Assembly: GCA_030749415.1 (NCBI GenBank)
Contig: JASMKC010000023.1
Span: forward strand, 2,833-66,832
DNA from: Myxococcota bacterium
GTDB lineage: Bacteria; Myxococcota_A; UBA9160; SMWR01
Direction of reading: 5' to 3'
Length of the DNA: 64,000 nucleotides
Part shown: one piece after another, positions 12,117-50,672 of the stretch
Numbering within the stretch: the first letter of the stretch is position 1
How the letters are laid out: each line of letters starts with the position of its first letter
The notes under the pieces: model-generated
Told to the model about the DNA's origin: nothing
What the model saw: only the letters and a program-made list of their open reading frames with translations
Databases searched by the model: none
Translations under genes and position numbers: made by a program

Positions 12117-12288
12117 AAAGGGGGACGCCCCCCTCTCGACCACGGTGCGCTCCTCACCGCCCCTTCATCGCAACACGGTGCGCTCCTCACTCCGAGGCTC
12201 GGGTCTGTTTCTCATGCTGAGCTCTGGTTGGTTTCTCATTCCGAGCCCTGGTAGCACGAGGCCTTCTGGGTGCCGACGCGTTCGCGTT

Positions 12289-12924
12289 TCATTTCAGCCC
12301 AAGCGATGCCGCCCACGCCTCGAGTCCGTTCACTCGCTCGAGGTCGAGGTGGACGATCAGCTCGAGCTCTTCGTGGGGGCTCGCGATCAGCCCGAACGCG
12401 ATGGTCGGAACTTCCACCTCGAAGGCTTCGAACGTGGTCTCGAGATGCCCCTTCACGTACCGCCCCCCAGCCTGCTCGACCAGCTCGAGCGGGAAGTCGA
12501 TCGGATAGTCCCTGCCGCCGAGGGTCAGCGTTCCAGACAGCACGAAGTGCCCCCGGTCGACGTCTGCGCGGAGCGACTCGGCATCGAGCGGGCTCGACGT
12601 GAAGAGAAGATCCGGCTGGACCTTCGCACCCAGCAGGTCCGACACGGTCCTGTTCCGCATGATGTTGCCGGACTTGAAGCTCTTTGCCGGCACGGTTACC
12701 ACGATTCTCGGCTCGCTCCCCGCCGCTGTCTTCATCAACGAGGCCGTCACATCGCAGCTCCGGCCGATCACCTCGACGTCCATGCCGAAGAACATGTCCT
12801 TGGTGGTCCGGTAGGCGACGCAATGATCCTTTGCGCCGAAGACCTGCTCGTCCGACGCTGCGAGCGCGAGCGGGCCGAGAAGAGCGGCAACGATCACCGC
12901 GGCAGTAAGAGTGTAGCGATGCAT
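12289..12924 (-). CDS. secreted YceI-like protein (candidate)
   Basis: Signal peptide MHRYTLTAAVIVAALLGPLALAAS. SGTLTLGGRDYPIDFPLEL resembles the YceI GxLTLxG motif. Confidence 0.55.
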   Translation of the reverse strand: MHRYTLTAAVIVAALLGPLALAASDEQVFGAKDHCVAYRTTKDMFFGMDVEVIGRSCDVTASLMKTAAGSEPRIVVTVPAKSFKSGNIMRNRTVSDLLGAKVQPDLLFTSSPLDAESLRADVDRGHFVLSGTLTLGGRDYPIDFPLELVEQAGGRYVKGHLETTFEAFEVEVPTIAFGLIASPHEELELIVHLDLERVNGLEAWAASLGLK

Positions 12925-13072
12925 GGATCTCCAACCTTTGAAACGCTTCTTCCGAGGGCCCGGGCTTGCTTTGCAGGAGCGATTGATCTGCCCCGGTTGT
13001 CGTACCGGGTCCTATGTCACCCCAGCAGCGGCAGCCGGCCGGAGCGTATTGTACTCCCGCTGCCGCCGCAGC

Positions 13073-13177
13073 CCTCGGAATCCGTTCTCTCCGGCGCCGC
13101 CCTCTCCGGCAGCGGCCTCGGAATTCGCCCTCTCCGGCGGCGGCAGCCTCAGAATCCGCCCTCTCCGGCGGCGGCCG
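13073..13177. repeat. tandem repeat of about 31 bp, roughly 3 copies (core CCTCGGAATYCGCCCTCTCCGGCGGCGG)
   Basis: Units at 13073-13115 (with an internal partial duplication), 13116-13146 and 13147-13177. It lies 150-250 nt upstream of the yceI-like start. Confidence 0.8.
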
Positions 13178-13233
13178 CTTACCGGGTGCCGATGTGAGTC
13201 CGTCCGGGGGAGGCGGAGTGGCTGGCCCGCGTC

Positions 13234-32928: not shown

Positions 32929-32968
32929 CAGGTGACAACCGATCGGTGACTAGTGCGCCAAGTGACGA

Positions 32969-35269
32969 TCACGAGGTGCACATGACGTGGTACTTCCCGT
33001 CGATGACCTCGGCGCCCTCGGTCTCGTGTTCGAAGCTTGGGAAGCGCTCATCCCAGGTCTGAAGTGCCCGGAGGTAGCCGATCTGAGGGCTCTCCTGGTT
33101 TCCAAAATTCTCTCCCGACATCAGCATCGGAATTCCCGGCGGATAGGGGATGACTCCATTCGCCGCCGTCCGGCCGGCCAGGTCCTCGACGGACACCTTC
33201 TCGATCTGGTTCGAGACAATGGAGTTGTAGGCTTCACGATGGGTCATGTCGGGTGTGGGCAGCGTCGAGTAGGCCTTGTTCAGCAGGTCGCCGGGACGCT
33301 CTTCCTTCAGGTACTGGAACATCTCATCGCCCAGCTCTCGAATTCCGAGATTTGCGTATCGGTCCGGGTGCCTGGCGGCCAGATCCGGCAGCACTTCTTC
33401 GATGCGATCGTTGGCATCGTAGTGCCGCTTGAAGGAGAGGAGATTGGTCAGAAGGGTTCCCCATTTCCCCTTGGTCACGCCGATCGAGAAGATGAACATG
33501 ATCTGAAAGTCCGTTACGCGTGTGGGAACGATCCCGAAGCGGGTGAAGTAGGCGTTGACGAGCGCGGCGGGCACACCGCGCTCGAGCAGTTGCCCATCTT
33601 GGCCCATTCCCGGGGAGAGAAGGCTGACCTTGATCGGGTCGAGCATGCACCAGTCGGGGGCAATTCCATCGAAGCCGTGCCAGGTGTCCTCGGGGCGCAT
33701 GATCCATGCGTCCTGGCCCTTGGTCAGGAGTTCGCGCGGGGCATCGGCGAACTCGTAGACCTGGCCGTCGGCCGGGTCGGTCACCGAATCTGCATTCCAG
33801 GGCTTGAAGAACCAGTCGCCCGACGCGGCGAGTTGCCGCTCCATCCGTGCGACCGTTTGCCGGAAATCGACCGCCTCGTCGATGACTTCCTGGGTGAGCG
33901 ATCGGCCCCCGGGTCCGTCCATCATCGCGCTGGCGATATCGTTGGATGCGATGATGGCGTAGAGCGGCGAGGTCGTGGCGTGCATCATGTAGGCCTGGTT
34001 GAAGCGATCGTGGTCGACCGAGCCTGCACCGTCTCGGATATGGATGTACGAGGCTTGGGAGAGGGCGGCGAGGAGCTTGTGACTCGAGTGTGTCGCGAAG
34101 ACTGTCGGGCCGGTGTGGTCCGCAGGATTTCCCCGCATGGCGTAATGATCCGCGTACATCGGGTTGAATCGAGCGTATCCGTACCACGCTTCGTCGAAGT
34201 GAATCCTGTCACAGCTAGCCTGTAGGAGTTCCTGAGCGCGAGCTGCGTTGTAGCAAAGCCCGTCGTAGGTACAGTTGGTGACGACTGAGTAGACCGGCTT
34301 CGTCTGCTCGAGCGAGTTCGTCAGAGGGCTTTCGGCTGTCTTTCTGCGAAGTGCATCAGCGCTCATCTCTTCAGGGGGGATGGGCCCGATGATTCCGTAG
34401 CGGTTGCGGGTCGGAATCAAGTAGATGGGTCTCGCGCCGGTCAGGATGAGGCCTTGCTCGATGGACTTGTGACAGTTGCGATCAGCCACGACGAGATCGT
34501 CCTCTTTCATGCAAGCCTGCATGATGGTTCGGTTCGAACCCGAGGTGCCGACCACGACCGAGTAGGAGCGGTCCGCTCCGAAAACACGCGCGGCGTAGGC
34601 CTCGCTGTCGGCGACTGGACCGCTGTGGTCGAGGAGAGAGCCAAGCTGGCCGCGCTCGATGCCCATATCTGTACGGAACAGGTTCTCTCCGTAGAAATCG
34701 AAGAAGAGGCGCCCGGGGGGCAGCTTGGTGAAGGCGACTCCACCCTGGTGGCCCGGGGCGGACCAGGAATACTCTCGAACTTGGGAGTATTCGCCGAGGG
34801 CTTTGGCAAAGGGTGGCAGGAGCTGAGCGCGGTAGCGCTTCATTGCAGCGATCACTCTGCCTGCTACGAAATCTGCGGTGTCCTCGAGAAGCCAGACGTA
34901 CTCATCGACGAGTTCGGCGACTTCAAGGCTCAGGCCCCGCATCACTCCTTCGCGATCGGCCACGAGGAAAGCAGGAACCGCTGCATGCCGTTCGCGAAGC
35001 TTCTCGAGCAGTGCTCGAGCCTGCGCATGCGACGCCTCGTCATCGCGGCCGAGGTCCCAGTTCAGGAGGACGCCGCTGAGAGCTGCATCGGAGATGACGA
35101 CGGCCGCGCCGTCCCGGGTCGACAGCGCTCGCACGACATCGACGTTCCGCGCTTCGAGTTCGCGCGCCAGATCCTCTGCGGAACGTCCGAGGCTCGTGTC
35201 CAGGTGGGCCAAGCCGTCGTCCACGATCAGAGCTCGGAGTCGAATCGGCTTGTAGGTCGGATCGATCAT
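32969..35269 (-). CDS. large PLP-dependent Orn/Lys/Arg decarboxylase (AdiA/SpeF/CadA family, with N-terminal wing domain)
   Basis: ATG 35269. Motifs: VVGTSGSNRTIM, and the PLP-Lys region THSSHKLLAALSQASYIHIRDG. 766 aa. Confidence 0.9.
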   Translation of the reverse strand: MIDPTYKPIRLRALIVDDGLAHLDTSLGRSAEDLARELEARNVDVVRALSTRDGAAVVISDAALSGVLLNWDLGRDDEASHAQARALLEKLRERHAAVPAFLVADREGVMRGLSLEVAELVDEYVWLLEDTADFVAGRVIAAMKRYRAQLLPPFAKALGEYSQVREYSWSAPGHQGGVAFTKLPPGRLFFDFYGENLFRTDMGIERGQLGSLLDHSGPVADSEAYAARVFGADRSYSVVVGTSGSNRTIMQACMKEDDLVVADRNCHKSIEQGLILTGARPIYLIPTRNRYGIIGPIPPEEMSADALRRKTAESPLTNSLEQTKPVYSVVTNCTYDGLCYNAARAQELLQASCDRIHFDEAWYGYARFNPMYADHYAMRGNPADHTGPTVFATHSSHKLLAALSQASYIHIRDGAGSVDHDRFNQAYMMHATTSPLYAIIASNDIASAMMDGPGGRSLTQEVIDEAVDFRQTVARMERQLAASGDWFFKPWNADSVTDPADGQVYEFADAPRELLTKGQDAWIMRPEDTWHGFDGIAPDWCMLDPIKVSLLSPGMGQDGQLLERGVPAALVNAYFTRFGIVPTRVTDFQIMFIFSIGVTKGKWGTLLTNLLSFKRHYDANDRIEEVLPDLAARHPDRYANLGIRELGDEMFQYLKEERPGDLLNKAYSTLPTPDMTHREAYNSIVSNQIEKVSVEDLAGRTAANGVIPYPPGIPMLMSGENFGNQESPQIGYLRALQTWDERFPSFEHETEGAEVIDGKYHVMCTS

Positions 35270-35291
35270 GAAGTGTCCACTCCTTGCCGAG

Positions 35292-36782
35292 TCACCAATT
35301 GAGGCGGGACTCACCGCTCAGGTGCCAGGAAAGCGTGAATTGAAGGCGGTTATTCAGACCGCTGCGACTTGTGTTGTTGGAGGCGGCGCTCCCACGCGTG
35401 ATCTGTCGGTTGCCGAACAGGTACTCCACGCCGATATCCAGGGGTGGGATGGGGCTCCAGATCAGGTTCGCCGAGACGTAGTGTGCACGCTTGTAGATGC
35501 CCTGGTCTTCAACCGGTTGGAAGGAAGGATCGATGAATTCGGTATCAGCCCAGGTGTAGCCGTAGGTCGCCGTCGAGCGCAGCGCCTCGCGCCAGAAGTG
35601 CGTGTAGACGGCCCAGAAGGAAGCAGCCCTCACGGGTCGCAGGCTGGGGTTGGACACCGATATGGGAGCGGCGTCGAGGCCCTGGCCCTGGAGATCGTCG
35701 ATGTACGCCCCGAGCGCCTGACCACCGACCGCGCCCAGCGCGAAGCTGTCTTTTCCGGTCGTGGGCAAATAGATCTGGAGGGTGAGTCCCCAGCCGTCCA
35801 CGCTCTCGCGCATGCCGTTTCCGCTCACTTCGAGGTGGCGGTAGAGGCCCTGGAGCCAGATCGCGGTTCCGCGCGCATTCTCGTACGCGAGCCCACCGAC
35901 GACCGAGGGAACCCGATTTAGATCGTTGAATTGTGTGTCGGGAAGGGTGATGTCGCCCGGCTCATCCTCTATGCCGATGAGTAGATACAGATTCTCTGGT
36001 GAGCCGATCAGCTGATGTATCGGCACCTTCAGCCGGGCTTGGATTGGCCGGTTCTCCGGGATTGCGTTGGGGCCCTCGAAGTCGAGTGTGTGCGGGATCG
36101 TCGCTCTATTCAGAAAAAGCGTGTAGTCCAGGCCCGCTTCCAGCCAGCCCCAGCGCCCATACAGCTGGTAGACCTGGAAGGGCGCGATGCCCGTGATCTT
36201 TCCGGTCAGGTTGAACTTGGTAAAGACCTCGAAGTCACCCCAGGGCGTGGGCATTTGGAGCCAACCGTCGAGGTGACTCTGCTGGATGCTCAAACCGGTC
36301 CGGTTGTCGCGATTTGCTGCGGCGGAGCCACGCACCGGGATATTGGCCGTTACGAACCAGTTCTCGAATCCGCTTCCGGGTGTGAGGCCCACCGAATTGA
36401 AGTCGTGAATGGTGTCGAGCTGGACGGTCGTACTGAAGCCAACTCGGACAGACTTCCAAAAGGGGTTCGCTGGAGCTGGGTGTTGACTCCCGAGCCCATA
36501 GACGTCCGACCCGGAAGCATCCGAGGTGTCTGCGGCTGGATCGGAGACGCTCTCCTGGATCTCCGGAGCCTTCGGTGCCTCTCTCGAGGATCCCACTGTT
36601 TCGATCGAAGCCACATTCGGCTCGTCTTTCGAAGCAATCTCCGCTTCGAGCTGCTCGACCCGCGCTTCCAGGCGTTGAACGGCTTCTCGCAGGCTATCGA
36701 TTTCGGCAACCGACGTGTTCTCGCCCGAAGCCGTCATCGCGGGGATGAGGAAGATGAGGAGAAAGAGAAGCACGCCTCGCAA
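35292..36782 (-). CDS. outer-membrane porin with an N-terminal coiled coil (DcaP-like candidate)
   Basis: Signal peptide (M)RGVLLFLLIFLIPAMTASG if TTG 36782 is the start (the ORF extends to 36914). Coiled coil EIDSLREAVQRLEARVEQLEAEI. Beta-barrel-like C-terminus ending ...ESRLNW. Confidence 0.65.
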   Translation of the reverse strand: MRGVLLFLLIFLIPAMTASGENTSVAEIDSLREAVQRLEARVEQLEAEIASKDEPNVASIETVGSSREAPKAPEIQESVSDPAADTSDASGSDVYGLGSQHPAPANPFWKSVRVGFSTTVQLDTIHDFNSVGLTPGSGFENWFVTANIPVRGSAAANRDNRTGLSIQQSHLDGWLQMPTPWGDFEVFTKFNLTGKITGIAPFQVYQLYGRWGWLEAGLDYTLFLNRATIPHTLDFEGPNAIPENRPIQARLKVPIHQLIGSPENLYLLIGIEDEPGDITLPDTQFNDLNRVPSVVGGLAYENARGTAIWLQGLYRHLEVSGNGMRESVDGWGLTLQIYLPTTGKDSFALGAVGGQALGAYIDDLQGQGLDAAPISVSNPSLRPVRAASFWAVYTHFWREALRSTATYGYTWADTEFIDPSFQPVEDQGIYKRAHYVSANLIWSPIPPLDIGVEYLFGNRQITRGSAASNNTSRSGLNNRLQFTLSWHLSGESRLNW

Positions 36783-37194
36783 CGAGGCCCGACCAGCCAG
36801 CGATCGGACTCCGCTCTTGCTGCTGGTTGCTCCCGGCCACGGGTTCGCTTTAGTAATCGGACTGGAATTCGTTGCCAAGGCCCCCTCGCCAGGCTCCCCG
36901 CAACCGCTGCGCACGCTCGAAGGTGTCGCGCAACGACGATACCCTGTTCCGCGTAGGTTATCGAAAGAAAAAATGCGCGGAGCCTCGGGGAGCCGGCAAT
37001 CGGGAGTTCGGGGGGGGCTGCCCGAGCAGCCGCCGTGGGCGTTCGATCAGACCCCGCGCGACGGTGACGACCCGGCATAGCCCCGACCCACACCGAAAAC
37101 ACCGGGCTGCCGCGGCCACACGCAAGAACCCCAACGCGATCTCAACCCCACGGGCCACCCCAGCACTCGCAGTCCGCCCGGTACGGGCCGAGGT

Positions 37195-40105: not shown

Positions 40106-40744
40106 CTAGGCGACGCCCAGCAGGTCCCTGGCGAGGGTGACGCCGTCCTTCGCCTGCGCGCCCCAGCCATCTGCCCCCTCTTTCTCTGCCCACGCTTTCG
40201 TCGTGACGGCACCGCCGACGATGACCGGGTACTTCTCGCGCACTTCGAGCTCCTTCAATATGCCGATGAGCTCGGTGAACTTCTCCATCGCGGGAGCGAA
40301 GACCACGGACACGGCGATCATGTCCGCTCCCTCCTTCTCGGCGGTCTCGTAGAAGTCGAACGGCGAGTTCTTCTCGCCGATGTCGATGACGTCGAAGCCT
40401 CCGATCGAGAGCAGGGTGCTCACCAGGTTCTTTCCGATGTTGTGCTGGCTGAGCATGGTTCCGAGTACGATCTTCTTGTCGTGCTTGGCGCTCTGGCCTT
40501 CGGGGAAGGCCTCCTGGATGAGGGGGATGCAGGCCTTGGCAGTGACGCCGCCCTTGACGAGATCCAGGACGATCGCCTGCTTGGCGGCAAATCGATCCCC
40601 CACTTCGGTGAGGCCGTCCATGATGCCAGATTCCAGGATCTCCATCGGGTCGAGGCCGGCGGCGAGCAGCTCGCGGGTCATCTCCGCTGCCTCTTCCGGC
40701 TTGGTCTCGCTCACCAGCCGTCTCAGGTCTTCGATCGTCGGCAT
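40106..40744 (-). CDS. corrinoid (B12-binding) protein with an atypical Co-ligand motif
   Basis: ATG 40744 follows GGAGGAG. It has a B12-cap plus Rossmann-like layout (KIVLGTMLSQHNIGKNLV...DVIDIG...ADMIAVSV...VIVGGA). SQHNIG (40433-40450) stands where DxHxxG is expected. Confidence 0.8.
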   Translation of the reverse strand: MPTIEDLRRLVSETKPEEAAEMTRELLAAGLDPMEILESGIMDGLTEVGDRFAAKQAIVLDLVKGGVTAKACIPLIQEAFPEGQSAKHDKKIVLGTMLSQHNIGKNLVSTLLSIGGFDVIDIGEKNSPFDFYETAEKEGADMIAVSVVFAPAMEKFTELIGILKELEVREKYPVIVGGAVTTKAWAEKEGADGWGAQAKDGVTLARDLLGVA

Positions 40745-40791: not shown

Positions 40792-42147
40792 TTAGTCGTC
40801 CCACGACGGGTAGTCGAGGCCCCACTCCTTGAAGATCCGTGTGAACTTCTTGTAATGGTCGACGAATTCCGGAATGGGCCTCAGCGTACTCATGTCGTAC
40901 AGCTTGTCGATCGTGGCCGCGGGCGGCGCCGGTGCACATTCGGCGGCGTTGGCCTTCTTGATGATCTCGATGCCTTCGCGCGGGCTGAGTGCGGCCGCCG
41001 CACGAGACAGCTCACCAGCCCAGCGGGCCTCCAGCCCGGTCGACCCTCCGGACAGCCACGTCGCTTCCATTCCCGAGATGCACGCATTGATGATGCAGAC
41101 GGCTGTGCCGTACCAGGAGCTGTCGCTCATGGGTCCACTGGGGTCGGCGGTGCCTCCCATCGTCAGCCATGGCAGCCGGAGATTCTGCTCAGCCGCAAGG
41201 GCAGCAGCCGAGTTGCTCCATGTGATGTCGTTTCCCGAGTAGACGCCGTGGACCGATACCGACATCCCCTGGGTGAGCGTCCCGCCCGAGTAGGCGAGCA
41301 TGCCCAGGGTATGCGCGATGATCTCGATCGCGCCTTGTTCGGGACCGGTCAGGTAGGCGTACAGCGTGGGAGAGGAGCTCATCCACGGCTCGAGTCCTTG
41401 CTGCTCCGCGAAGAAGGTGAGATTGAAGCGGTCGTAGTTGACCCGCATGTCCATCAAGATCTGGACGGGAAGCGTGCAGTTGTACTTGTTGTAGAGGCCC
41501 GAGTTGAACGTGCTCATCAGGGTAATGGGCGTCGTGGCACTCATCGGGATGCCGAAGAAGAGACCGGGCCGGCCCGCCCATGTCGCCACGTCGTTCATGA
41601 TCCGGGCTTCCGTCAGGCAGACGAGCGTGTGCGCGGGGGTCTCCGCGATGTTCTTCGTCTTGCCGACGCCGAAGAGCGGCAGCGGAAACACGCCATCGCA
41701 GGTGGGTTCCCGAACGACGGTCAGGGCATGGGCCCGGTAGATATCGACATCCCTCGTGATCGTGCCCGCGGGAGGCCAACAGTAGGGGTGCTTTGCATCA
41801 CCCGGCGCCCTGGGAGTGAGCCTGATCTCGTCCCGACCCTGCCCGAACGTGACCTCGTGTCTCGCTGTGGCGATGGCTTCCTTGATCTCTTCCTCGGTGA
41901 ACTTGATGATTCGTTTCGTGTCCTGGCAATAGAGCCCGAGCTCGAGCAGGAGCTCCATGCCGGCCTGGAAGACGGCATCCGCCATGTCCGGGTCGGCCAT
42001 GACCGGCTCGTCGGGATCGGCTTCGATCTTGTACTTGGCCTGAACGGACGCGAGAACGGACGGGAGTAACTCGGTTTCGAACTTCTCCTCCGCCATGATT
42101 GGCCCGGTGGTCGACCGCTGAATCGCTTCCCAGAAAAGCCTACCCAT
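40792..42147 (-). CDS. MtmB-family (monomethylamine methyltransferase-like) protein, non-pyrrolysine
   Basis: Blocks match my recollection of archaeal MtmB: AGMELLLELGLYCQDTKRIIKFTEEEI, WAGRPG, GLEARWAGELSRA. The 451-codon ORF has no in-frame TAG. Confidence 0.75.
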   Translation of the reverse strand: MGRLFWEAIQRSTTGPIMAEEKFETELLPSVLASVQAKYKIEADPDEPVMADPDMADAVFQAGMELLLELGLYCQDTKRIIKFTEEEIKEAIATARHEVTFGQGRDEIRLTPRAPGDAKHPYCWPPAGTITRDVDIYRAHALTVVREPTCDGVFPLPLFGVGKTKNIAETPAHTLVCLTEARIMNDVATWAGRPGLFFGIPMSATTPITLMSTFNSGLYNKYNCTLPVQILMDMRVNYDRFNLTFFAEQQGLEPWMSSSPTLYAYLTGPEQGAIEIIAHTLGMLAYSGGTLTQGMSVSVHGVYSGNDITWSNSAAALAAEQNLRLPWLTMGGTADPSGPMSDSSWYGTAVCIINACISGMEATWLSGGSTGLEARWAGELSRAAAALSPREGIEIIKKANAAECAPAPPAATIDKLYDMSTLRPIPEFVDHYKKFTRIFKEWGLDYPSWDD

Positions 42148-42192: not shown

Positions 42193-43161
42193 CTAACCCT
42201 GCTCGTAGCATTCGCTCTCGCGAATGGAGCGCATCAGCGCTGCACATTCCTGCCCGATGTACCGCATGTGTTGAGACGAGAGCCACGGCATGATGTCTAT
42301 GATGTACCAGGAGAGGTCTTCTGGATTTGTGAAGGTCTCCTCCCATTGAATCGCACTCGCGTCGTGGTTGAGAAGCATCGCCCTGGCCTTGCCGCCGTCG
42401 TTTCCGAACAGGAAGATGCCCGAGGCGTCTTCCTGAAGGGGCAGGGGGCGTTTGAACGATTCGTCCAACACGCGCAGTGCGCTGGCCCAATCGCGATCGC
42501 AGAGATGAGCCGAGTGGATGACGAAGGTCGCGCTCCCCACGTCGATGCCGAGCCGTGCGGCGGCCTCCCGCTGCAGGCGAGTGAGCGACAGCGCCTCGAG
42601 CGGCCAAGCCGCGTAGACGTCCATGCTGCGAATCACGAACGAGCCGAATAGCGCACCTTCGATGACGTTGAAGGTGGCGGAGAGGATCGACGGCGTATTC
42701 TGAGGCGAGCCCATCTCCTGCGGGTCGATCAGCACCAGCGTGCCCGAGCGCGTGTCGTGGGATTGTTTCAGTCGCTCGATCGCCGCGTCGAACTGGCTGA
42801 GCCCGTTCCAGTCGTGCAGGCGCTGGCCGAGCGCCGGGCCCGAGTCGCCGGTGGGAGACGTGGACGTGAACCGTCGGTAGTGCTCGTCGACGTCGGCGCC
42901 ACTGAGGTCGAGGTAAGGCGCGAGTTCCTCCTCCTCGGCGGCTAGCTGGATCGTCACGATCGCGTTCAATGCCTCGGCGATCCTGTCGCCCTGGCCGGTC
43001 GTCTTGTCGGTGCCGATCCGCATGACCAGATTGAGGAGCTGCAGCCAGCCGTCCGCCACGTCGTTGCTGAACATGGGAAAGGTGGTCTTGCGAGAGAGGA
43101 AGCGTTTGCGTTCCGGAATCTGCTCCATTTCGTTTCTCCCGATCACCGGCTTCGACGGCAT
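42193..43161 (-). CDS. thymidylate-synthase-fold protein lacking the catalytic Cys, with a C-terminal extension
   Basis: ThyA-like order of motifs: LGQRLHDW, HDTRSGTLVLIDP, TPSILSATFNV (in place of PCH), VIRSMDVYAAWPLEA (RSxD), VIHSAHLCDRD. About 90 extra C-terminal aa. Confidence 0.6.
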   Translation of the reverse strand: MPSKPVIGRNEMEQIPERKRFLSRKTTFPMFSNDVADGWLQLLNLVMRIGTDKTTGQGDRIAEALNAIVTIQLAAEEEELAPYLDLSGADVDEHYRRFTSTSPTGDSGPALGQRLHDWNGLSQFDAAIERLKQSHDTRSGTLVLIDPQEMGSPQNTPSILSATFNVIEGALFGSFVIRSMDVYAAWPLEALSLTRLQREAAARLGIDVGSATFVIHSAHLCDRDWASALRVLDESFKRPLPLQEDASGIFLFGNDGGKARAMLLNHDASAIQWEETFTNPEDLSWYIIDIMPWLSSQHMRYIGQECAALMRSIRESECYEQG

Positions 43162-43167
43162 CGCGCT

Positions 43168-43827
43168 TTAGCGGTTGGGGGCGCAGAAGGTGCGAATGAA
43201 CTGACTCTCGAGTCGTTGCAGGATGACTTCGTGCGGGGTCTCGCCGCCGTGCTCGAGCCAGTAGGCGAGCTCCACTTGCTTGAGTGCCAGCATCTTGCGC
43301 ACCAGCAGGTCGGGGTCCTCGTCGACGTAGATCCCCTCCGCGATGCCGCGGGCAAATAGGTCCCGGGGAATCGGGACGCCTTGCTTCCAGATCTCGCTCT
43401 CGCCCGCCGACTTCGGGAAGCCGGACGCCCAGCCGTAGCCGTCGCGACAGCACATGCGCAGGAAGTCGGGCCTCTCGAGGAAGTAGGCGGCCCCCCGCTT
43501 GAGAACGGAGAGATGGCTCTCGAGTGTGTCCGAGTGGGCGTCTCGCGCCTCGCGGATGCAATCCAGGAACTCGCGCATGCGCGTCCGGTGGATGCTGTTG
43601 AAGAGCGACTCCTTGCCATCGATCACCCCGTAGAGCGTGCCCAGCGAGATGCCGGCTTCGGCCGCGATCTCGCGCATGCGGGAGCGATCTGCCCCCTTCT
43701 GGGCGAAGACGCGCTCGGCGGCTTCGGTGATGACCTGCTGGTAGAGGGTGCGACGCTCCTCTTTCATCCGGCGCTGGATGGCGCTGGGGCGGGTGCGGCG
43801 CGCGCTCTGGCGGTCGGGAGAGGGCAT
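43168..43827 (-). CDS. TetR-family transcriptional regulator
   Basis: HTH region AAERVFAQKGADRSRMREIAAEAGISLGTLYGVI. Its stop is 6 nt before the next gene. Confidence 0.85.
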   Translation of the reverse strand: MPSPDRQSARRTRPSAIQRRMKEERRTLYQQVITEAAERVFAQKGADRSRMREIAAEAGISLGTLYGVIDGKESLFNSIHRTRMREFLDCIREARDAHSDTLESHLSVLKRGAAYFLERPDFLRMCCRDGYGWASGFPKSAGESEIWKQGVPIPRDLFARGIAEGIYVDEDPDLLVRKMLALKQVELAYWLEHGGETPHEVILQRLESQFIRTFCAPNR

Positions 43828-43839
43828 GTCTGGTAACCA

Positions 43840-43861
43840 CTATTCTATTAAATCAGAATAG
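43840..43861. promoter_or_regulatory. candidate TetR operator palindrome
   Basis: CTATTCT-attaaatc-AGAATAG (7-bp arms) in an AT-rich stretch, 13 nt upstream of the tetR start. Confidence 0.4.
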
Positions 43862-43941
43862 CGGTTTCAAGCAGCATGGGATGTGCCGCGATGCCGGTGC
43901 CCGCGGGCGAAATGCTGTGGCGGCCTCGAGTGGTGCCGGAT

Positions 43942-44505: not shown

Positions 44506-45684
44506 ATGGAGAAAGCACGGACGGTCGATCTCGCGTTCGCCGAGCTGCCCGGTCACGAGATGTTCGAGCTCCTCGAGGAGCTGCGGGGCGATGGTCCGCT
44601 GGCCCGCGCGACGTTCGCCGGTGCGCCCTGCTTTCTCACCACCACCCACGGCCTTCTGCTCGAGGGCTTCATCGACGCCGCGAAGTTCCCGCCGGCCCGC
44701 CTCTACCAGAACAGCATCGCCCGGGTGATCGGCCCCAACTTCCAGTCGATGGAAGGGGCCAGGCACACCCTGTACCGGCGGCTCGCCACCCCGGCATTTC
44801 GCTCGCGGGCAGTGGAACGCTACGAGCGCGAGGGGATGGCGGAGCTGGCTCACGAGCTGCTGGAGCGTCTGGACGGGCGCGGCGAGGCCGATCTCGCGAG
44901 TGCGTTCACGCACCGCTTCCCGTTCCTGGTGCTCTGCCGCCTGGTCGGGATTCCCCGGGACCGGGAAGACGAGTTCCACCAATGGGCGGCGGAGATGGTG
45001 ACTCCGCCAAACGTGCCGCTCGAGGTCTGCCGCCGCGCCGCCGCCGAGTTCACGCGCTACCTCGCGCCCACCTTGGCCGAGCGCCGCCGCGAGCCCCGCA
45101 GCGACGTGATCTCCGAACTGATCGCCGCCGAGGTGGAGGGACGCCACCTCACGGACGAGGAGATCTCCTCCCACGTGAAGCTCATGTTTTCCGCCGGTGC
45201 AACGACGACGTGCGATGGCATCGGAAACCTGCTGCACGCATTGCTCTCACACTCCGGCGCCTGGGAGCAGGTGGTCGACGATCCCTCCGTCCGCGCCACG
45301 GCCGTTCACGAGTCGCTGCGGTGGCAGACGCCGGTGCCCAACCTTCCACGCATCTCGGCCGAGGAGACCGTCGAGTTCGGCGGAAGGGAGATCCCGCCGA
45401 AGAGCTTCGTCCTCTTCAGCATGGCGTCGGCGAATCGGGATCCCGCGGTCTACGACGATCCCCACCGCTTCGACCCGGCCCGCAGCTCGCGCGATATCCT
45501 GAGTTTCGGGCGTGGCGAGCGCTCCTGTCCCGGCATGCACCTGGCGAAGAAGGAACTCTCGATCGCCCTCGACGTGCTGATCGACCGTTTCCCGAAGCTG
45601 CGGCTGCAGGGCGACCCCCAGGCCTCGGCTCCGACCGGTGCCATCATCCGCGGTCCGAAGACCCTGCCCGTCGCACTCCAGTAG
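44506..45684 (+). CDS. cytochrome P450
   Basis: ATG 44506. I-helix FSAGATTT, ESLRWQTP (ExxR), haem loop FGRGERSCPGMHLA. Confidence 0.9.
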   Translation: MEKARTVDLAFAELPGHEMFELLEELRGDGPLARATFAGAPCFLTTTHGLLLEGFIDAAKFPPARLYQNSIARVIGPNFQSMEGARHTLYRRLATPAFRSRAVERYEREGMAELAHELLERLDGRGEADLASAFTHRFPFLVLCRLVGIPRDREDEFHQWAAEMVTPPNVPLEVCRRAAAEFTRYLAPTLAERRREPRSDVISELIAAEVEGRHLTDEEISSHVKLMFSAGATTTCDGIGNLLHALLSHSGAWEQVVDDPSVRATAVHESLRWQTPVPNLPRISAEETVEFGGREIPPKSFVLFSMASANRDPAVYDDPHRFDPARSSRDILSFGRGERSCPGMHLAKKELSIALDVLIDRFPKLRLQGDPQASAPTGAIIRGPKTLPVALQ

Positions 45685-45764
45685 GGTCGCACCGGCGAGT
45701 GGGGCCGAGCGTTCGGCGGCAGACGAGCCTGCCTCGCCCGGCCTGCCCCGGGGACCCGTCAGGT

Positions 45765-45904
45765 GAGCGCAGGAAGTTCAAGCGTTGGTCCCGCGACGGC
45801 GAGTACGGGAACAGCGACGGCGAGTACGGGAAGTTCAAGCTGCGTTTTCGCTGGGTCCGATCAGCAGACATTCTGTCCAATGGGGACCGGGTCCCAACAC
45901 GGGG
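45765..45904 (+). repeat. interspersed 5' module (45822-45904) preceded by a partial duplicate of its own 5' end (45765-45793) and a 17-bp local duplication
   Basis: gagcgcaggaagttcaagcgttggtcccg, then cgacggcgagtacggga twice (45794-45810, 45815-45831), then agttcaagctgcgttttcgctgggtccgatcagcagacattctgtccaatggggaccgggtcccaacacgggg. Confidence 0.8.
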
Positions 45905-46097
45905 CGGTGATGTTTTCGACCGCGGTGATGCTTCTCAACCTCGAGGCGCCGCCGCCGCTCGTGCCGGATGCGGCCTCCCCGGAATCCCGCGGGCCCGACT
46001 CGAAGCCGCGGCCGCACGCCGCCGGATAGCGCTACGTTGACGGATCCGGCAGGAGGAGGCTCGGCAGCCATGTCAGGAGGCGCAGAGGCGGCAGGCC

Positions 46098-46350
46098 GGC
46101 TCGACTGCATCTTCGTCAACGCCGGAATCGGCGGTGCGCCATCGGCTAGGTCATCGATAGCGGGGCGGAAGACTGGGACTTCACTTTCGGTGTCCTGGTC
46201 CGCGGCGCCTTCCCGGGCATCGAGCACGTGTCCCAGGGCATGCAGGCCCAAGGCGGGGGGGGGCGCGAGCATCAACACGGCATCGGTCGCGGGTGTGACC
46301 GGCGTCTGCCCGCCCGTCGACGGCGGCCTCACGAGTCTCGGCGTCGACAT
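46098..46350 (+). pseudogene. decayed short-chain dehydrogenase/reductase (SDR)
   Basis: SDR motifs sit in two different frames: LDCIFVNAGIGG and GGGASINTASVAG in one, EDWDFTFGVLVRGAFPGIEHVSQGMQAQGGGG in another. The frames join at a G9 run (46255-46263). The N-terminal Rossmann region and the YxxxK region are missing. VDGGLT follows directly. Confidence 0.55.
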
Positions 46351-46463
46351 CCGCCGGACCATGGGCCGGGACGAAGCCGCCGCCTCGCCCCTCGCGGGCA
46401 TCACGGCCATCGACTACGGCAGCACCGGCGCGCCGCCCAAGATCCGGCCCGGAAGTAGCCGCT

Positions 46464-47108
46464 TTGAGCGCTGAAGACCGCAAGCTGATCGACGCAATCG
46501 TCGGAATGCGTGAGCAGGAGGCCGTCGAGCTCGCGACCGCGCGACTCGAGGCCGCCGGCGAGCCCCTCGAGATCCTGGATCTCTGCAAGCAGGCGATGGA
46601 CGTCGTCGGCCGGAATTTCGAAGAGGGTGAGTTCTTCATCCCCGAGCTGGTGATGGCCGGCGAGATCCTCTCGCAGATTTCGGCCGTGGTGAAGCCGCAC
46701 ATCGCGGTGGGCGCCAAGGCGCCGGGAGAGCGGCGAGCAACGGTACTGCTCGGCACTGTGCACGGAGACATCCACGACATCGGCAAGAACATCGTGGGCT
46801 TCATGCTCGATGTGAACGACTTCGAGGTCTGCGACCTGGGCGTCGATGTCACGCCGGAGCGCTTCATCGAGGCGATCGAGCGGCATGCCCCCGACGTGGT
46901 TGCGCTGAGCGGCTTCCTGACGCTCTCTTTCGGCTCGATGAAGCGCACCATCGAGGCGATCGCAGAGGCCGGGCTTCGCGACGACGTGAAGATCATGATC
47001 GGCGGCGGCCAGGTGGACGAGGCGATCCTCGAGTTCACCGGCGCCGATTCCTTTGGCGCCAATGCGATGAGCGCAGTCAATCTCTGCCGGCAGTGGGCGG
47101 ACGCGTGA
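46464..47108 (+). CDS. corrinoid (B12-binding) protein, canonical
   Basis: Cap domain FEEGEFFIPELVMAG. Canonical GTVHGDIHDIGKNIV. DVVALSGFLT and IMIGGG also present. TTG start. Confidence 0.9.
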   Translation: MSAEDRKLIDAIVGMREQEAVELATARLEAAGEPLEILDLCKQAMDVVGRNFEEGEFFIPELVMAGEILSQISAVVKPHIAVGAKAPGERRATVLLGTVHGDIHDIGKNIVGFMLDVNDFEVCDLGVDVTPERFIEAIERHAPDVVALSGFLTLSFGSMKRTIEAIAEAGLRDDVKIMIGGGQVDEAILEFTGADSFGANAMSAVNLCRQWADA

Positions 47109-48355
47109 ACGAGACCGGCACCGAACTCTTCGAGGAACGCTCGCAGCGGATTCGAGACGCCGTCGAGCTACGGGAGCCCGATCGCGTTCCCTTCTCCACG
47201 ATCTGGCACTTCTGGCCGGCGCGTTACGCCGGGATGACCTGCCGGGAGGCAATGTACGAGTACGATCGCTACAGCGCCGCGATGCGCAAGGCCGTGCTCG
47301 ATCTCGAGCCCGACTCCTTCGCGTTCATGCAGCCCGCCGTGAGCCTCGGGCCGGCGTTCGAGCAGCTGGGTTTCCGCATGCTCGAGTGGCCCGGTCATGG
47401 TGTCGATTCGGATTCCACGTACCAGTACATCGACCGCGAGTACATGAAGGCGGACGAGTACGACGACTTCCTCTTCGATCCCACGGGCTTCTTCCTGAGG
47501 AAGTACCTGCCGAGAGTCGCCGACGCCTTCGAGGGGTTCGCGGGCTTTCCGGACTTCCCCGCCTCTCCCTACTTTGGGCTCGTGCACGCGGCACCTGCGT
47601 TCGCGACGCCCGGGATGGCCGAGAGCTTCGAGCGGCTGGCGGGCGCCGGGCGGGAGATGATGCAGATGGTCGGGTCGGGCCTGCCGGTGGTCCAGGAGCT
47701 GGCCGAGCTCGGCTTCCCCACGGTCTTCGGCGGCTTCTCCATGGCGCCCTACGACTACATTGCCGACTACATGCGCGGCTCTCGCGGCGCCATGCTCGAC
47801 ATGTTCCGCCATGAAGAGAAGATGATCGCGGCGATCGAGAAGGCGCGCGCCATCATCGTTCGAGGCACGATCGAGCGCCCCTCCCCACTCCCCTCGAAGA
47901 CCGTGTTCATTCCGCTCCACTGGGGACTCGACGGATTCATGTCGGATGAGCAGTTTGCCAAGTTCTACTGGCCGCAGCTGCGCGAACTCCTGACGGCACT
48001 CATCGACGCCGATCTGACCCCGCTGGTGCTCTGGGAGGGGAACTGCGAATCTCGCCTCGAGAGAATTGCGGATATCCCGCCCGGCAAGGCCATCTACTTC
48101 TTCGAGCGCACCGATCCCTTCAAGGCGAAGGCTGTACTCGGCGACACCGTTTGCCTGCGGGGCTTTGTGCCGGCATCGATCCTGACTACCGGCAAGCCCG
48201 CCGAGGTCGAGGACTACTGCAAGCGGCTGATCGATGGCTGCGCGCCCGGGGGTGGGCTGATCGTCGATGGCTCGATCGGCATCCCCGACGACGCGCGGAT
48301 CGAGAACGTCTTTGCGATGCGCGACGCCGTCTGGAACTACGGACAGGCCCGGTAG
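47105..48355 (+). CDS. uroporphyrinogen-decarboxylase (UroD/MtaA/CmuA)-family corrinoid methyltransferase
   Basis: The GTG overlaps the upstream stop (GTGA). UroD-family TIM-barrel-like pattern over 416 aa (DRVPFST..., VFIPLHWGLDGF, GGGLIVDGSIGIP). Sits in a corrinoid operon. Confidence 0.75.
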   Translation: MNETGTELFEERSQRIRDAVELREPDRVPFSTIWHFWPARYAGMTCREAMYEYDRYSAAMRKAVLDLEPDSFAFMQPAVSLGPAFEQLGFRMLEWPGHGVDSDSTYQYIDREYMKADEYDDFLFDPTGFFLRKYLPRVADAFEGFAGFPDFPASPYFGLVHAAPAFATPGMAESFERLAGAGREMMQMVGSGLPVVQELAELGFPTVFGGFSMAPYDYIADYMRGSRGAMLDMFRHEEKMIAAIEKARAIIVRGTIERPSPLPSKTVFIPLHWGLDGFMSDEQFAKFYWPQLRELLTALIDADLTPLVLWEGNCESRLERIADIPPGKAIYFFERTDPFKAKAVLGDTVCLRGFVPASILTTGKPAEVEDYCKRLIDGCAPGGGLIVDGSIGIPDDARIENVFAMRDAVWNYGQAR

Positions 48356-48420
48356 CCGCACGTGACCGTGCACTCCTTGGCGAATCGGCGGACCCAGAGC
48401 GGGGAGCGAAAGGAGAACCG

Positions 48421-49131
48421 GTGCCGGTCGTGAGCGACGTCCCGCTCGAGATCTCGCTGGCCGAGCTGAAACGGCTGCGCACGCTCCACGGAAAGGACGG
48501 GCTGCACCCACGGCTTCGCGCGCTGCTTCCGGAGATCCTCGCCGAGGCGGTCGGGCAGAAGGTGCTCCAGCCCGCGGTCGCCTGGGAGTCGCGACGCCTT
48601 CTGGAAGCGACCGGCACTCGCGTTCGACTCGCCGGCGGGCCGGAGCTGGCGCGGGCGAAGGCCGTCGTCGAGTTGCTGGGTGAAGCGGACGAACTCGTCG
48701 CGGCGGTCGGCAGCATCGGCCCGGAACTCGATCTCATGGCTCGTGACTGGTCTGCGAGCGGACGTGAGCTGGACGCCTTCGTGCTCGGTGAGATCGGCAA
48801 TCTGGCCATCGGAAAGCTCGCCGATCGCATGCCGGAGATCATCTCGGAGTGGGCTGCCGGCCGCGGACTCGAAGCGAGCGGCGCACTCAGTCCGGGTGGA
48901 ACCGGAGTCGATCTCTCCGACCAGCGCGTCGTGGTCGAGCTTGCGAACGCCCAGCGAATCGGCGTCGATCTCACCAGCGGCCAAATGCTCGTACCGCTCA
49001 AGTCGATGTCCCTGTTGATTGGCCTGGGGCACGGGCTCCCGACGTGGACCCACGCGCAGGCGTGTGATCTCTGCGCTTCGCGCGAGCACTGTCGCCTGCG
49101 CCGGTCGAACTCGGAGCCCGCCGTCGCGTAG
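48421..49131 (+). CDS. MetH activation-domain-like protein (B12 methyltransferase reactivation/accessory)
   Basis: GTG 48421 follows AGGAGA. SPGGTGVDLSDQRVVVELANAQRIGVDLTSGQMLVPLKSMSLLIGLG matches the activation-domain core pattern. C-terminal CDLCASREHC. Confidence 0.6.
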   Translation: MPVVSDVPLEISLAELKRLRTLHGKDGLHPRLRALLPEILAEAVGQKVLQPAVAWESRRLLEATGTRVRLAGGPELARAKAVVELLGEADELVAAVGSIGPELDLMARDWSASGRELDAFVLGEIGNLAIGKLADRMPEIISEWAAGRGLEASGALSPGGTGVDLSDQRVVVELANAQRIGVDLTSGQMLVPLKSMSLLIGLGHGLPTWTHAQACDLCASREHCRLRRSNSEPAVA

Positions 49132-49157
49132 CGGGGGTCTGGCATTATGGTCACACG

Positions 49158-50672
49158 GTGAACGACCCGGTCCGGATCGACCTGCACCCCCTGGGTCGCA
49201 GCATTCAGGTGGAGCGAGGCACCAGCCTGCGCGATGTCCTCTACGCCTATGGCGTCGAGTTCCCGTGTGGAGGACAGGGGCGCTGCCGGCGCTGCCGGGT
49301 CCAGCTGCTGGAGGGCACGCTGCCCATCGGCGTCGAGGAGAGCGCCATCCTCTCCGACCGCGAGAAGGAGGAGGGCTGGCGGCTGGCCTGCCGCTGCCGG
49401 GTGGAGGCGCCGGTCACGCTGCAGGTGGAGCAGTTCCGGGCCCCGATTCTGGTGGATCACACGCCCTTCGCCTTCCAGCCGCGACCGGGCCATGGCGTGG
49501 CCGTGGACCTGGGGACCACCACCCTGGTGGCGCAGCTCCTCGATCTCGAGACCGGCAGGGTGCTGGCGGCCCAGACCGCACTCAACCCCCAGGGCGTCTC
49601 CGGCAGCGACATCATGCACCGCATCCAGTTCGCCCTGAACGAAGACGGGCGCAAGCAGCTGATGCAGCTGGTGCGCGACGCCGTGGCCGGGCTGGTGCGC
49701 CGCGCGGTGGCGAGCGCAGGGCTCCGCAGCGCCCCGTTGGAGACGCTGGTGCTGGTGGGAAATACGGCGATGCACCACCTCTTCTGCGGGCTTGACGTAG
49801 CGCCGTTGGCCGCCGTCCCGTTCGAGTCCGAGAGGATCGGCCTCCAGGAGTTCCGGGCCGACGAGATCGGCTGGCAGCTTCGGGGCAACCCGCGGATCCG
49901 CTTCCTGCCCTGTCTGGGAGGCTTCGTGGGCAGCGACCTGCTGGCCGGCGTGCTCGCCACCCGCCTGCACGAGCGCGATGAGCTCGCGGTGCTCGTAGAC
50001 CTGGGAACCAACGGCGAGATCGTGGCGGGGAATGCGCAGCGCATGCTCTGCACCTCCACCGCGGCGGGTCCCGCCTTCGAGGCCGGCGGAATCGAGATGG
50101 GAATGCAGGCCACGACCGGCGCCATCGACGGGGTGACGGCGGGCAACGGCGTCCTGGAGTGCCGCGTGCTGGGCGGCGGCGAGGCGCGCGGAATCTGTGG
50201 CAGCGGGTTGGTGGACGCGGTGGCCGCCGGCCTGGACCTGGGCTGGATCGAGCCCGGCGGTCGGCTTGCGGACGGCCGCAAGATTCTCCAGTTGGACGGC
50301 AGCGTGCATTTGACCCAGGGCGATATCCGCCAGTTGCAGCTGGCCAAGGGAGCCATCGCCGCGGGACTGAAAATCCTCCTCGAGCGCCTGGGCGCGGCAG
50401 CCGGGACCGCACCCCGGGTGAACCTGGCCGGGGCGTTCGGAAACTACGTGAACCGCGACAGCGCCCGGCGCATCGGCCTGCTCGACTACCCCGGCGCGAA
50501 CGTGGAGCCCGTGGGGAATACGGCGCTGCTAGGCGCGAAGTTGGCGCTATTCGCACCGGAGCGGGAGGCCCAGGAGATCTCGCAGCTGAGCGCGCGCATC
50601 GAGCACGTCTCGCTGGCGGCGGATCCGAGCTTCCAGAACGTCTTCATCGGCGAGTTGCGCTTCCCCGGCTGA
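49158..50672 (+). CDS. RACo-type reductive activator of corrinoid proteins (2Fe-2S ferredoxin plus ASKHA ATPase)
   Basis: N-terminal CGGQGRCRRC...C cluster. ASKHA motifs AVDLGTTTLVAQL and VLVDLGTNGEIV. ICGSGL also present. Confidence 0.85.
   Translation: MNDPVRIDLHPLGRSIQVERGTSLRDVLYAYGVEFPCGGQGRCRRCRVQLLEGTLPIGVEESAILSDREKEEGWRLACRCRVEAPVTLQVEQFRAPILVDHTPFAFQPRPGHGVAVDLGTTTLVAQLLDLETGRVLAAQTALNPQGVSGSDIMHRIQFALNEDGRKQLMQLVRDAVAGLVRRAVASAGLRSAPLETLVLVGNTAMHHLFCGLDVAPLAAVPFESERIGLQEFRADEIGWQLRGNPRIRFLPCLGGFVGSDLLAGVLATRLHERDELAVLVDLGTNGEIVAGNAQRMLCTSTAAGPAFEAGGIEMGMQATTGAIDGVTAGNGVLECRVLGGGEARGICGSGLVDAVAAGLDLGWIEPGGRLADGRKILQLDGSVHLTQGDIRQLQLAKGAIAAGLKILLERLGAAAGTAPRVNLAGAFGNYVNRDSARRIGLLDYPGANVEPVGNTALLGAKLALFAPEREAQEISQLSARIEHVSLAADPSFQNVFIGELRFPG

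Follow-up and report, generated by a model that had tools for sequence, protein, structure and literature searches.

Corrinoid methyltransferase systems comprise a substrate-specific methyltransferase (MT1), a corrinoid carrier protein and a second methyltransferase (MT2) that unloads the methyl group, and corrinoid-dependent demethylation of methylated amines by members of the MttB/MtmB superfamily is increasingly recognized outside the methanogens. To our knowledge, the exit of the methyl group from the corrinoid protein often goes unexplained where no MtgA/MtrH-type gene lies nearby. Here we describe a 64,000-nucleotide (nt) stretch of a Myxococcota bacterium genome (assembly GCA_030749415.1, contig JASMKC010000023.1, positions 2,833 to 66,832; hereafter the window), in which genes for an MtmB homologue and a corrinoid protein are accompanied by a gene, termed gene X, whose product is derived from thymidylate synthase (ThyA). 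Gene X recurs as a fixed third partner of such gene sets in many uncultured bacteria. From sequence comparison and structure prediction we propose, at somewhat less than even confidence, that gene X is the acceptor-side partner of this system, a recruited pseudo-ThyA that probably works on the tetrahydrofolate side.

Among described MT2 enzymes, MtgA binds methyl-tetrahydrofolate in the glycine betaine system, and MtrH is its homologue and closest structural relative (PMC12774963). Members of the MtgA/MtrH family (PF02007; MtgA structure 6SJN) share with gene X its genomic position and presumed role, and gene X is encoded with an MT1 and a corrinoid protein, as MT2 enzymes are. The MtgA/MtrH proteins are TIM barrels, however, whereas gene X has the alpha/beta fold of ThyA, its pterin binding and methyl transfer are putative, and no pterin-binding TIM-barrel domain (PF02007 or PF00809) was found in it by Pfam. 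A function for any non-pyrrolysine MtmB homologue was first reported only in 2026, for MtqB of Methanococcoides, which demethylates tetramethylammonium and choline and is the only such protein characterized (PMC13044021). Both the MtqB-MtqC-MtqA system and the one described here pair a non-pyrrolysine MtmB homologue with a dedicated corrinoid protein, but the former is archaeal and anaerobic with coenzyme M as the acceptor, and the latter is bacterial, apparently aerobic and TetR-regulated, with gene X as its third component. MtrA, the corrinoid-binding subunit of the Mtr complex (5laa, 5l8x), is homologous to an N-terminal domain that most gene X homologues carry and the window protein lacks. 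A preprint on the mlp gene cluster concerns UroD-type methyltransferases and not the gene X cassette (PMC10418091). Our literature search found no paper on ThyA-like proteins in corrinoid systems, on MtrA together with thymidylate synthase, or on MtmB together with thymidylate synthase, and a three-component corrinoid methyltransferase system with a thymidylate-synthase-derived third component appears to be new.

A ThyA fold that has lost its catalytic residues

Gene X is made up as follows, with residues numbered along the 322-amino-acid (aa) open frame at 42193-43161 on the reverse strand:

42193..43128, reverse strand: gene X, a pseudo-thymidylate synthase with the ThyA fold and a DUF4346 domain; 311 aa counted from Met12, based on the open reading frame (ORF), a Shine-Dalgarno (SD) sequence, Pfam, AlphaFold2 and the ratio of nonsynonymous to synonymous substitution rates (dN/dS)
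42457..43080, reverse strand: ThyA-like domain with decayed catalytic residues; residues 28-235, from hhalign, Foldseek and TIGR03283
42688..42690, reverse strand: codon of Ser158, equivalent to the nucleophile Cys146 of ThyA, from alignments and the translation TPSI
42199..42432, reverse strand: PterinBD-DUF4346 domain; residues 244-321, Pfam PF14251 (E 8.8e-8), beta-beta-beta-alpha-alpha

The relationship of gene X to ThyA is far beyond chance. Thymidylat_synt (PF00303) matches residues 103-234 in Pfam (E 1.7e-8), and hhalign aligns residues 104-256 with residues 87-246 of E. coli ThyA at a probability of 98.3%, using a ThyA sequence that was checked as identical to PDB 1aob. A phmmer search of the PDB returned the cytidine monophosphate (CMP) hydroxymethylase MilA (E 1.8e-9). 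An AlphaFold2 model built from 130 sequences reached a mean predicted local distance difference test (pLDDT) score of 91.9. Foldseek matched this model to MilA, to phage deoxycytidine monophosphate (dCMP) hydroxylase and to dozens of ThyA structures at E values of 1e-14 to 1e-11, with MilA 5jnh as the best match (E 1.5e-14) and AfhB 9iqu at a template modelling (TM) score of 0.82 normalized to the target. The original prediction had assigned the ThyA fold from motif order, and both fold and order are borne out, each proposed equivalence being reproduced by hhalign. Leu111 within LGQRLHDW corresponds to Tyr94 of ThyA, DTRS to D124-S-R126-R127, TPSI (confirmed by translation) to A-P-C146-H, RSMD to R166-S167-x-D169, Glu189 within WPLE to Asn177, and SAHLC to D205-T-H207-L-Y209.

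Gene X thus shares fold and motif order with E. coli ThyA, MilA (5jnh/5b6d) and T4 dCMP hydroxymethylase, and the window protein has equivalents of R166, S167, D169 and H207. It differs from ThyA in lacking Cys146, in the replacement of Asn177 by Glu (Glu189), Arg127 by Ser (Ser139), Tyr94 by Leu and Tyr209 by Cys, in the missing Trp80/Trp83 loop, in a C-terminal tail in which DUF4346 replaces the carboxylate lid of ThyA, and in belonging to a corrinoid methyltransferase operon; it retains Arg126 and Arg166. The top NCBIfam model, TIGR03283 (methanogen-type thymidylate synthase), scores 88 bits against a cutoff of 174.55, TIGR03284 scores 24.8 against 108.35, and gene X falls below the cutoff of every NCBIfam thymidylate synthase equivalog. 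With Cys146, Asn177 and Arg127 gone and no equivalog cutoff reached, the claim that gene X cannot be a classical thymidylate synthase holds.

In order to see how these positions vary, 79 close homologues (the clade, at least 50% identity) were compared with 51 distant relatives. Three ThyA residues are absent from the entire clade and almost fixed in the distant relatives: Cys146 (0/79, with D in 19, G in 18, S in 10, A in 8 and N in 8, versus 51/51), Asn177 (0/79, with E in 53 and D in 18, versus 51/51) and Arg127 (0/79, with S in 61 and A in 13, versus 50/51). Other pocket residues are partly retained in the clade, namely Arg126 (56/79 versus 51/51), Tyr94 (59/79 versus 51/51), His207 (54/79 versus 51/51), Tyr209 (51/79 versus 51/51), Arg166 (74/79 versus 51/51) and Asp169 (78/79 versus 49/51), and Ser167 is kept in 68 of the 79. 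Across the clade and the loci described below, the nucleophile position is hypervariable (D, G, S, A, N, H or E), and Cys occupies it in only 1 of about 40 operon-type loci examined. The change from Cys to Ser, which had been singled out as a feature of the protein, carries no meaning in itself because the position is D, G, S, A or N, and never Cys, in the 79 close homologues. A catalytic Ser in place of Cys146 is likewise ruled out by this variability.

Met12 is most likely the true start of gene X, since the second ATG, at 43128, is preceded at 6 nt by the SD-like sequence GGGAGA, gene callers give 311 aa for gene X on identical contigs, the 97%-identical homologue P0001 starts at Met12, and residues 1-10 are disordered in the AlphaFold2 model with pLDDT below 50. 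The distance of 6 nt from tetR given by the original prediction is correct for the first ATG only; counted from Met12, the gap is 39 nt. Third-position GC content is 0.83, typical of real genes in the window (63% GC). The dN/dS of gene X is 0.20-0.28, compared with 0.11-0.20 for the MtmB homologue, and it is 0.22 for the window and L014, a pair of N-terminally truncated lineages. Gene X is a real, constrained gene under purifying selection, and a decaying pseudogene is ruled out by the dN/dS of about 0.2, the many invariant residues and the confident model.

Linkage to an MtmB homologue and a corrinoid protein

The genes of the cassette lie on a single strand in the order tetR, gene X, MtmB homologue and corrinoid protein, separated by 39-47 nt, as expected from the earlier placing of gene X between tetR and an MtmB-like gene:

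43168..43827, reverse strand: TetR-family regulator, first gene of the cassette (PF00440, E 2e-11)
40792..42147, reverse strand: non-pyrrolysine MtmB homologue, presumed substrate:corrinoid methyltransferase (MT1); 451 aa (PF05369, E 1.5e-45)
40106..40744, reverse strand: cognate corrinoid protein; 212 aa (PF02607, B12-binding_2, and PF02310, B12-binding)

The MtmB homologue spans positions 4-450 of the 450 in the PF05369 profile with no in-frame amber codon, and it is regarded as a non-pyrrolysine form because the full profile is covered without an in-frame stop. The corrinoid protein is MtbC/MtgC-like by NCBIfam, below cutoff. Its motif reads SQHNIGKN, in which the Asp of the canonical DxHxxG is replaced by Ser; a second corrinoid protein in the window (46464-47108) has the canonical form, DIHDIGKN.

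One genome per GTDB species was scanned with the clade alignment as the query, yielding 24 loci from Binatia, Myxococcota, Halieaceae, Steroidobacteraceae, other Gammaproteobacteria, Dehalococcoidia and 'Deltaproteobacteria'. Gene X is adjoined by an MtmB homologue and a corrinoid protein in all 21 loci with enough flanking sequence, and the other 3 end at a contig edge. The cassette is also present in five of five metagenome contexts with unrelated flanks. When the flanking ORFs of 29 loci were clustered, only gene X, the MtmB homologue, the corrinoid protein and TetR recurred, a cytochrome P450 being present in 5/29; tetR lies upstream of gene X in 19 of the 29 and in most operon-type metagenome loci. 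The three structural genes are co-inherited, their pairwise divergences correlating at r = 0.81-0.83 (0.81 for gene X versus the corrinoid protein), and the mean pairwise identity of gene X is 58% versus 69% and 76% for its two partners.

The reverse search, of metagenomes with the MtmB alignment, gave 80 loci, which were divided into four groups by identity to the window MtmB. In group A (the operon type, at least 64% identity), gene X lies directly upstream in 22/22 loci with upstream sequence. The single candidate exception, L060, was set aside as a chimeric or rearranged contig in which a truncated response regulator runs into MtmB at residue 54. Absence of co-occurrence with corrinoid genes in other genomes had been named beforehand as a possible refutation; co-occurrence proved essentially strict (21/21, 5/5 and 22/22), which supports a functional tie between gene X and the corrinoid genes. 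Group B (57-61%) consists of low-GC, Dehalococcoidia-like loci in which gene X, where present, follows the corrinoid gene in convergent or co-directional orientation. Group D (22-32%) has the corrinoid gene upstream, GntR regulators and no gene X.

Group C, the sister MtmB subfamily (47-49%), also lacks gene X, and in 4/4 of its loci an MtrH-family gene (PF02007, E 1e-80 to 3e-88) adjoins the corrinoid gene. These loci are L086 (260-4862), L089 (103-4850), L090 and L093, with genes for FAD-dependent oxidoreductases nearby in L089. Searches by tblastn with the group C MtrH proteins gave no match in the window or in any gene X-bearing locus, and no Pterin_bind or MtrH-family protein was found in the scanned ORFs of the window (Pfam and tblastn) or among the flanking genes of the metagenome cassette loci (Pfam), in agreement with the earlier remark that the cluster lacks a pterin-binding methyltransferase. 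In the loci examined, gene X and MtrH exclude each other. The presence of an MtrH/MtgA-type enzyme in the sister subfamily, at the position that gene X occupies here, is the pattern to be expected if gene X were to fill the folate-side role. In one group B locus with an MtmB homologue and a corrinoid protein but no gene X (L068), a weak 38-aa tblastn match to MtrH (5220-5333; 45% identity, E 5e-4) lies just downstream of the corrinoid gene and may be a remnant or due to chance.

Two further features of the window may bear on regulation and activation of the cassette:

43840..43870, reverse strand: sigma-70-like promoter TTGAAA-17-TAGAAT overlapped by the palindrome CTATTCT-N8-AGAATAG (consensus match only)
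49158..50672, forward strand: RACo/RamA-type reductive activase for corrinoid proteins, part of a second corrinoid gene set nearby (PF14574, PF17651 and Fer2)

The palindrome overlaps the -10 element just upstream of tetR and is a candidate TetR operator. It also occurs upstream of tetR in L001-L004, and in L008/L009, a 52%-identical cassette of GCA_024228115.1. The activase lies outside the conserved cassette and is a possible trans-acting activator of it. Among the genome-scan loci, a RACo-like match lies near the cassette only in L033; the window-lineage loci L001/L002 have the activase gene set as well. The window thus holds the features of a three-component corrinoid system, namely an MT1, a corrinoid protein with a His-on motif and a reductive activase. 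The second corrinoid gene set (44506-50672, forward strand) is divergent from the cassette and includes a P450, a 134-aa protein without assignment, the second corrinoid protein (B12-binding), a UroD/MtaA-like methyltransferase (47093-48355) and a 236-aa protein without a Pfam match (48421-49131), in addition to the activase. On the downstream side of the cassette, past genes for a PAS sensor kinase and a PNPOx-like protein, lie genes for a DcaP-like porin, a large Orn/Lys/Arg decarboxylase and an amino-acid permease (31489-36914, reverse strand), which may hint at amine metabolism; this arrangement is not conserved at other cassette loci. The window also encodes several P450s, luciferase-like and flavin monooxygenases, a GMC oxidoreductase and a fatty-acid desaturase, from which we infer that the host is probably aerobic or facultative.

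Two other cassette loci have unusual gene content. In the Binatia locus L023 (8036-14925), two tandem MtmB homologues (66-68% identity) and the cognate corrinoid protein come first, and then another corrinoid protein (35%) and a divergent MtmB homologue, the third of the locus (29%). In L037 of Dehalococcoidales (10127-14761, reverse strand), the last genes of an operon are those for the MtmB homologue and the corrinoid protein; the operon also codes for DUF1638, a class I S-adenosylmethionine (SAM) methyltransferase, a metallo-beta-lactamase-fold protein, a radical SAM protein and a 506-aa protein without a Pfam match.

The DUF4346 domain and the three-domain relatives

About 90 extra C-terminal residues had been recognized in the original prediction, and a hidden Markov model search identifies this extension as PterinBD-DUF4346 (residues 244-321). 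Its core motif, D..G.F ... H..Y.G.E ... Q (D245, G248, F250, H298, Y301, G303, E305 and Q321), is invariant or nearly so across 130 sequences, at no fewer than 48/51 in the distant relatives; it holds in both Cys-less and Cys-retaining groups, and the five stand-alone DUF4346 proteins that were retrieved carry it as well. DUF4346 and an N-terminal segment are the constant parts of the clade, in which D245, H266, H298, R300, E305, C306 and Q321 are each invariant (79/79). Within the domain, H266, W285 and C306 are specific to the operon-type gene X, and W273 and R300 also occur in the Cys-retaining group. Together with S161, these three residues are invariant in exactly the subgroup that lacks Cys146, Asn177 and Arg127. 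A zinc site formed by His266, His298 and Cys306 was considered and set aside, as H298 and C306 lie 8 residues apart on one helix.

By hhalign, the start of DUF4346 (RPLPL...) aligns with the C-terminal strands of classical ThyA. In ThyA the C-terminal part closes over the cofactor, and DUF4346 is, on this alignment, an elaboration of that part. The Pfam name of the domain reflects its association with pterin-binding proteins, and stand-alone copies bear JGI names such as dihydropteroate synthase or MtrA. On an archaeal contig (L044, 1361-4306), genes for MtrA, MtrH and a MetE-like protein (Meth_synt_2) are followed by a stand-alone 101-aa DUF4346 gene, which by gene order is an independent link of DUF4346 to corrinoid/pterin methyl transfer. 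P0500 has an MtrA-like domain fused straight to DUF4346 without a ThyA insert. In L041, the 150-aa gene upstream of a stand-alone DUF4346 was tried as a candidate MtrA-like protein and ruled out.

Homologues of gene X numbered 275 by word index and 833 as representatives at 50% clustering. Most are 460-480 aa long owing to an additional domain of about 155 aa at the N-terminus, which is truly homologous to MtrA (the family profile matches MtrA structures 5laa and 5l8x at E 4e-19). This domain is absent from the window protein, and no remnant was found in a six-frame translation of the window at E <= 1. It is dispensable, since forms without it are scattered over several branches of a neighbour-joining tree.

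The direct evolutionary relatives of gene X are the three-domain proteins (21-36% identity) of DPANN archaea, Thermoproteota, candidate phyla radiation (CPR) bacteria and some phages, together with the methanogen-type thymidylate synthase TIGR03283. Those from Micrarchaeia, Aenigmatarchaeota, Woesearchaeota, Thermoproteota and CPR bacteria are named thymidylate synthase. The compact ThyA core and the DUF4346 core motif are common to both, and most clade members have the MtrA-like N-domain. The three-domain family keeps Cys146, Asn177 (51/51) and Arg126/127 and has no link to MtmB, whereas the window protein has lost these residues and the N-domain and has gained S161, H266, W285 and C306. Gene X would be a functional, neofunctionalized descendant of this family with MtrA-like, ThyA and DUF4346 domains; the ThyA catalytic apparatus is gone from it, as is, in the window lineage, the MtrA-like domain. 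One three-domain protein, P0222, is fused at its C-terminus to dCMP deaminase, which speaks for a genuine pyrimidine-nucleotide role among the superfamily members that retain Cys. Of the Cys-retaining relatives examined, the nearest is the three-domain P0130 (31% identity, L038-L040); its gene lies on phage contigs of about 100 kb, flanked by a Mu F-like gene and structural genes, a setting that points to a phage enzyme for nucleotide modification equipped with MtrA-like and DUF4346 modules.

Proposed role of gene X and competing explanations

Gene X is proposed as the acceptor-side component because it is the only other conserved structural gene of the cassette, no MtrH or Pterin_bind gene is present, and the sister subfamily has an MT2 of MtgA/MtrH type. 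In the proposed mechanism, the MtmB homologue would methylate the Co(I) corrinoid protein from a methylated amine. The gene X product would then dock the methyl-Co(III) corrinoid protein and hand on the methyl group, the likeliest acceptor being N5 of tetrahydrofolate or another reduced pterin; it would thereby take the role that TIM-barrel enzymes of the MtrH/MtgA type have in related systems. Three inferences lead from a conserved partner to this role: catalysis by gene X, action on the acceptor side, and a pterin as the acceptor.

A more specific version, which we regard as possible though doubtful, holds that gene X is a methyl-cob(III)amide:tetrahydropterin methyltransferase on the ThyA fold, a structurally new class of MT2 that took the place of MtrH/MtgA in a widespread bacterial non-pyrrolysine MtmB system and arose by active-site migration. 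In such a migration, the ThyA pocket would have decayed and a new invariant site, comprising S161, H266, W285, C306 and the DUF4346 core, would have been fixed. Group B offers a view of how this may have come about. Its gene X copies share with group A a clade signature that is absent from the distant relatives (P29, D37, Q41, N44, N66, F164, F213, H216, D224, W273 and R300), and group A, including the window, has lost the catalytic set and fixed S161, H266, W285 and C306. A stepwise recruitment can be envisaged in which a thymidylate-synthase-like gene was first associated with MtmB and the corrinoid protein and was later drawn into the operon, whereupon the old active site would have been freed from selection and new residues fixed, largely in DUF4346. 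The Cys-retaining Dehalococcoidia-type proteins (genome loci L026, L032 and L037; metagenome loci L067, L074, L076, L079, L081, L085 and L099), which retain the complete catalytic set (Cys146, Asn177, Arg127, Tyr94, His207 and Tyr209) and adjoin an MtmB homologue and a corrinoid gene, usually convergently, may be bifunctional or ancestral intermediates. They also give a hint that an ancestral enzyme coupled a corrinoid-borne methyl group directly to pyrimidine C5 methylation, an idea we consider very improbable.

Several observations weigh against an acceptor-side, folate-linked role. In group B the link to gene X looks looser, the gene being present in 9 loci and absent from 7/16 testable ones; the group B and Dehalococcoidia proteins mostly keep Cys146, Asn177, Lys/Arg126-Arg127, Tyr94, His207 and Tyr209, and gene X may still be a nucleotide enzyme there. 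The original prediction argued from the folate binding of the ThyA fold, and the step from there to a kept folate pocket has fared poorly: the Trp80/Trp83 folate loop is missing from the whole family, R166/S167/D169 are replaced in some Cys-less members (G/G/N in L030; D169N in L014 and L057), and the case for a retained classical folate site is weak. DUF4346 has no solved structure and no known ligand, its profile having no match among PDB sequences and a literature search on the domain having returned nothing relevant. His84, the cobalt ligand, and Glu54 have described roles in MtrA (PMC4915002); in the MtrA-like domain of P0172, a representative three-domain homologue, a deletion of 2 residues takes in the His84 position, and Val stands in place of Glu54. 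Corrinoid binding through this domain is ruled out for the window protein, which lacks it, and is unlikely for the homologues, in which these residues are missing. Finally, the MT2 may be encoded elsewhere in genomes with the cassette.

The acceptor might be something other than a pterin, such as a small anionic thiol or amine (homocysteine or a thiol resembling coenzyme M) or a cytosine-like or ammonium-bearing phospho-compound, bound in a remodelled nucleotide pocket or a new DUF4346 site. This is an unlikely reading in our estimation, although it draws on the pocket itself: an anion site may persist in R166, S167 and R126, and Asn177 has become acidic in 71/79. In dCMP hydroxymethylase, an Asp equivalent to Asn177 selects cytosine. 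The new invariant Cys306 and His266, found only in the Cys-less group, and the MetE-like homocysteine methyltransferase gene adjoining one stand-alone DUF4346 point the same way. The pterin-side MtrH/MtgA-type enzyme of the sister subfamily favours a pterin, however; pocket residues decay in several members, H298 and C306 would be about 12 A apart by helix geometry, so that a shared metal is unlikely, and no thiol-activating zinc motif is evident.

We likewise judge it unlikely that gene X is a non-catalytic pseudoenzyme, one that scaffolds the MtmB homologue and the corrinoid protein, lends them specificity or protection, or serves as their chaperone, for example by stabilizing Co(I) in apparently aerobic hosts, with the MT2 located elsewhere. 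The relaxed and variable old active site, the faster evolution of gene X compared with its partners, the dispensable MtrA-like domain and the many O2-dependent enzymes of the window host (P450s, monooxygenases and a desaturase) would all fit such a function. The charged and polar invariants of the clade and a dN/dS of about 0.2 argue for more than a scaffold, and the exclusivity with MtrH is better explained by functional replacement.

A ligand-sensing or regulatory partnership with the adjacent TetR, outside methyl-transfer chemistry, would account for tetR standing immediately upstream in most operon-type loci and for the candidate palindromic operator at the promoter, but is highly improbable: TetR proteins have their own ligand-binding domain, and gene X occurs without tetR in L023, L025, L035 and the Dehalococcoidia-type loci, and in testable genome loci it is always accompanied by MtmB and the corrinoid protein. 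Lastly, the idea that gene X has remained an enzyme of pyrimidine-nucleotide C5 modification (thymidylate synthase or hydroxymethylase) with corrinoid genes as mere neighbours, as might be read from its best PDB matches (MilA and phage dCMP hydroxylase), the catalytic set kept in Dehalococcoidia-type relatives, the naming of distant relatives as thymidylate synthase and the dCMP deaminase fusion in one of them, is close to refuted for the window protein, since the whole operon-type group lacks the nucleophile, Asn177 and Arg127, the window protein also has Y94L and Y209C, and the strict operon linkage with MtmB and the corrinoid protein would be left unexplained.

The cassette defined by these results is compact, portable and regulated by TetR, and it is found in Binatia, Myxococcota, several gammaproteobacterial lineages and Dehalococcoidia; the thymidylate-synthase-derived protein is its only component that lacks an explanation. 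The results also serve as a warning that hundreds of metagenomic 'thymidylate synthase' annotations are wrong. If gene X does encode the acceptor-side enzyme, it would bring a new fold into cobalamin methyl-transfer chemistry and give DUF4346 its first functional context, and the family would record the passage of a nucleotide-metabolism enzyme through a pseudoenzyme to a new enzyme, with intermediates still extant.

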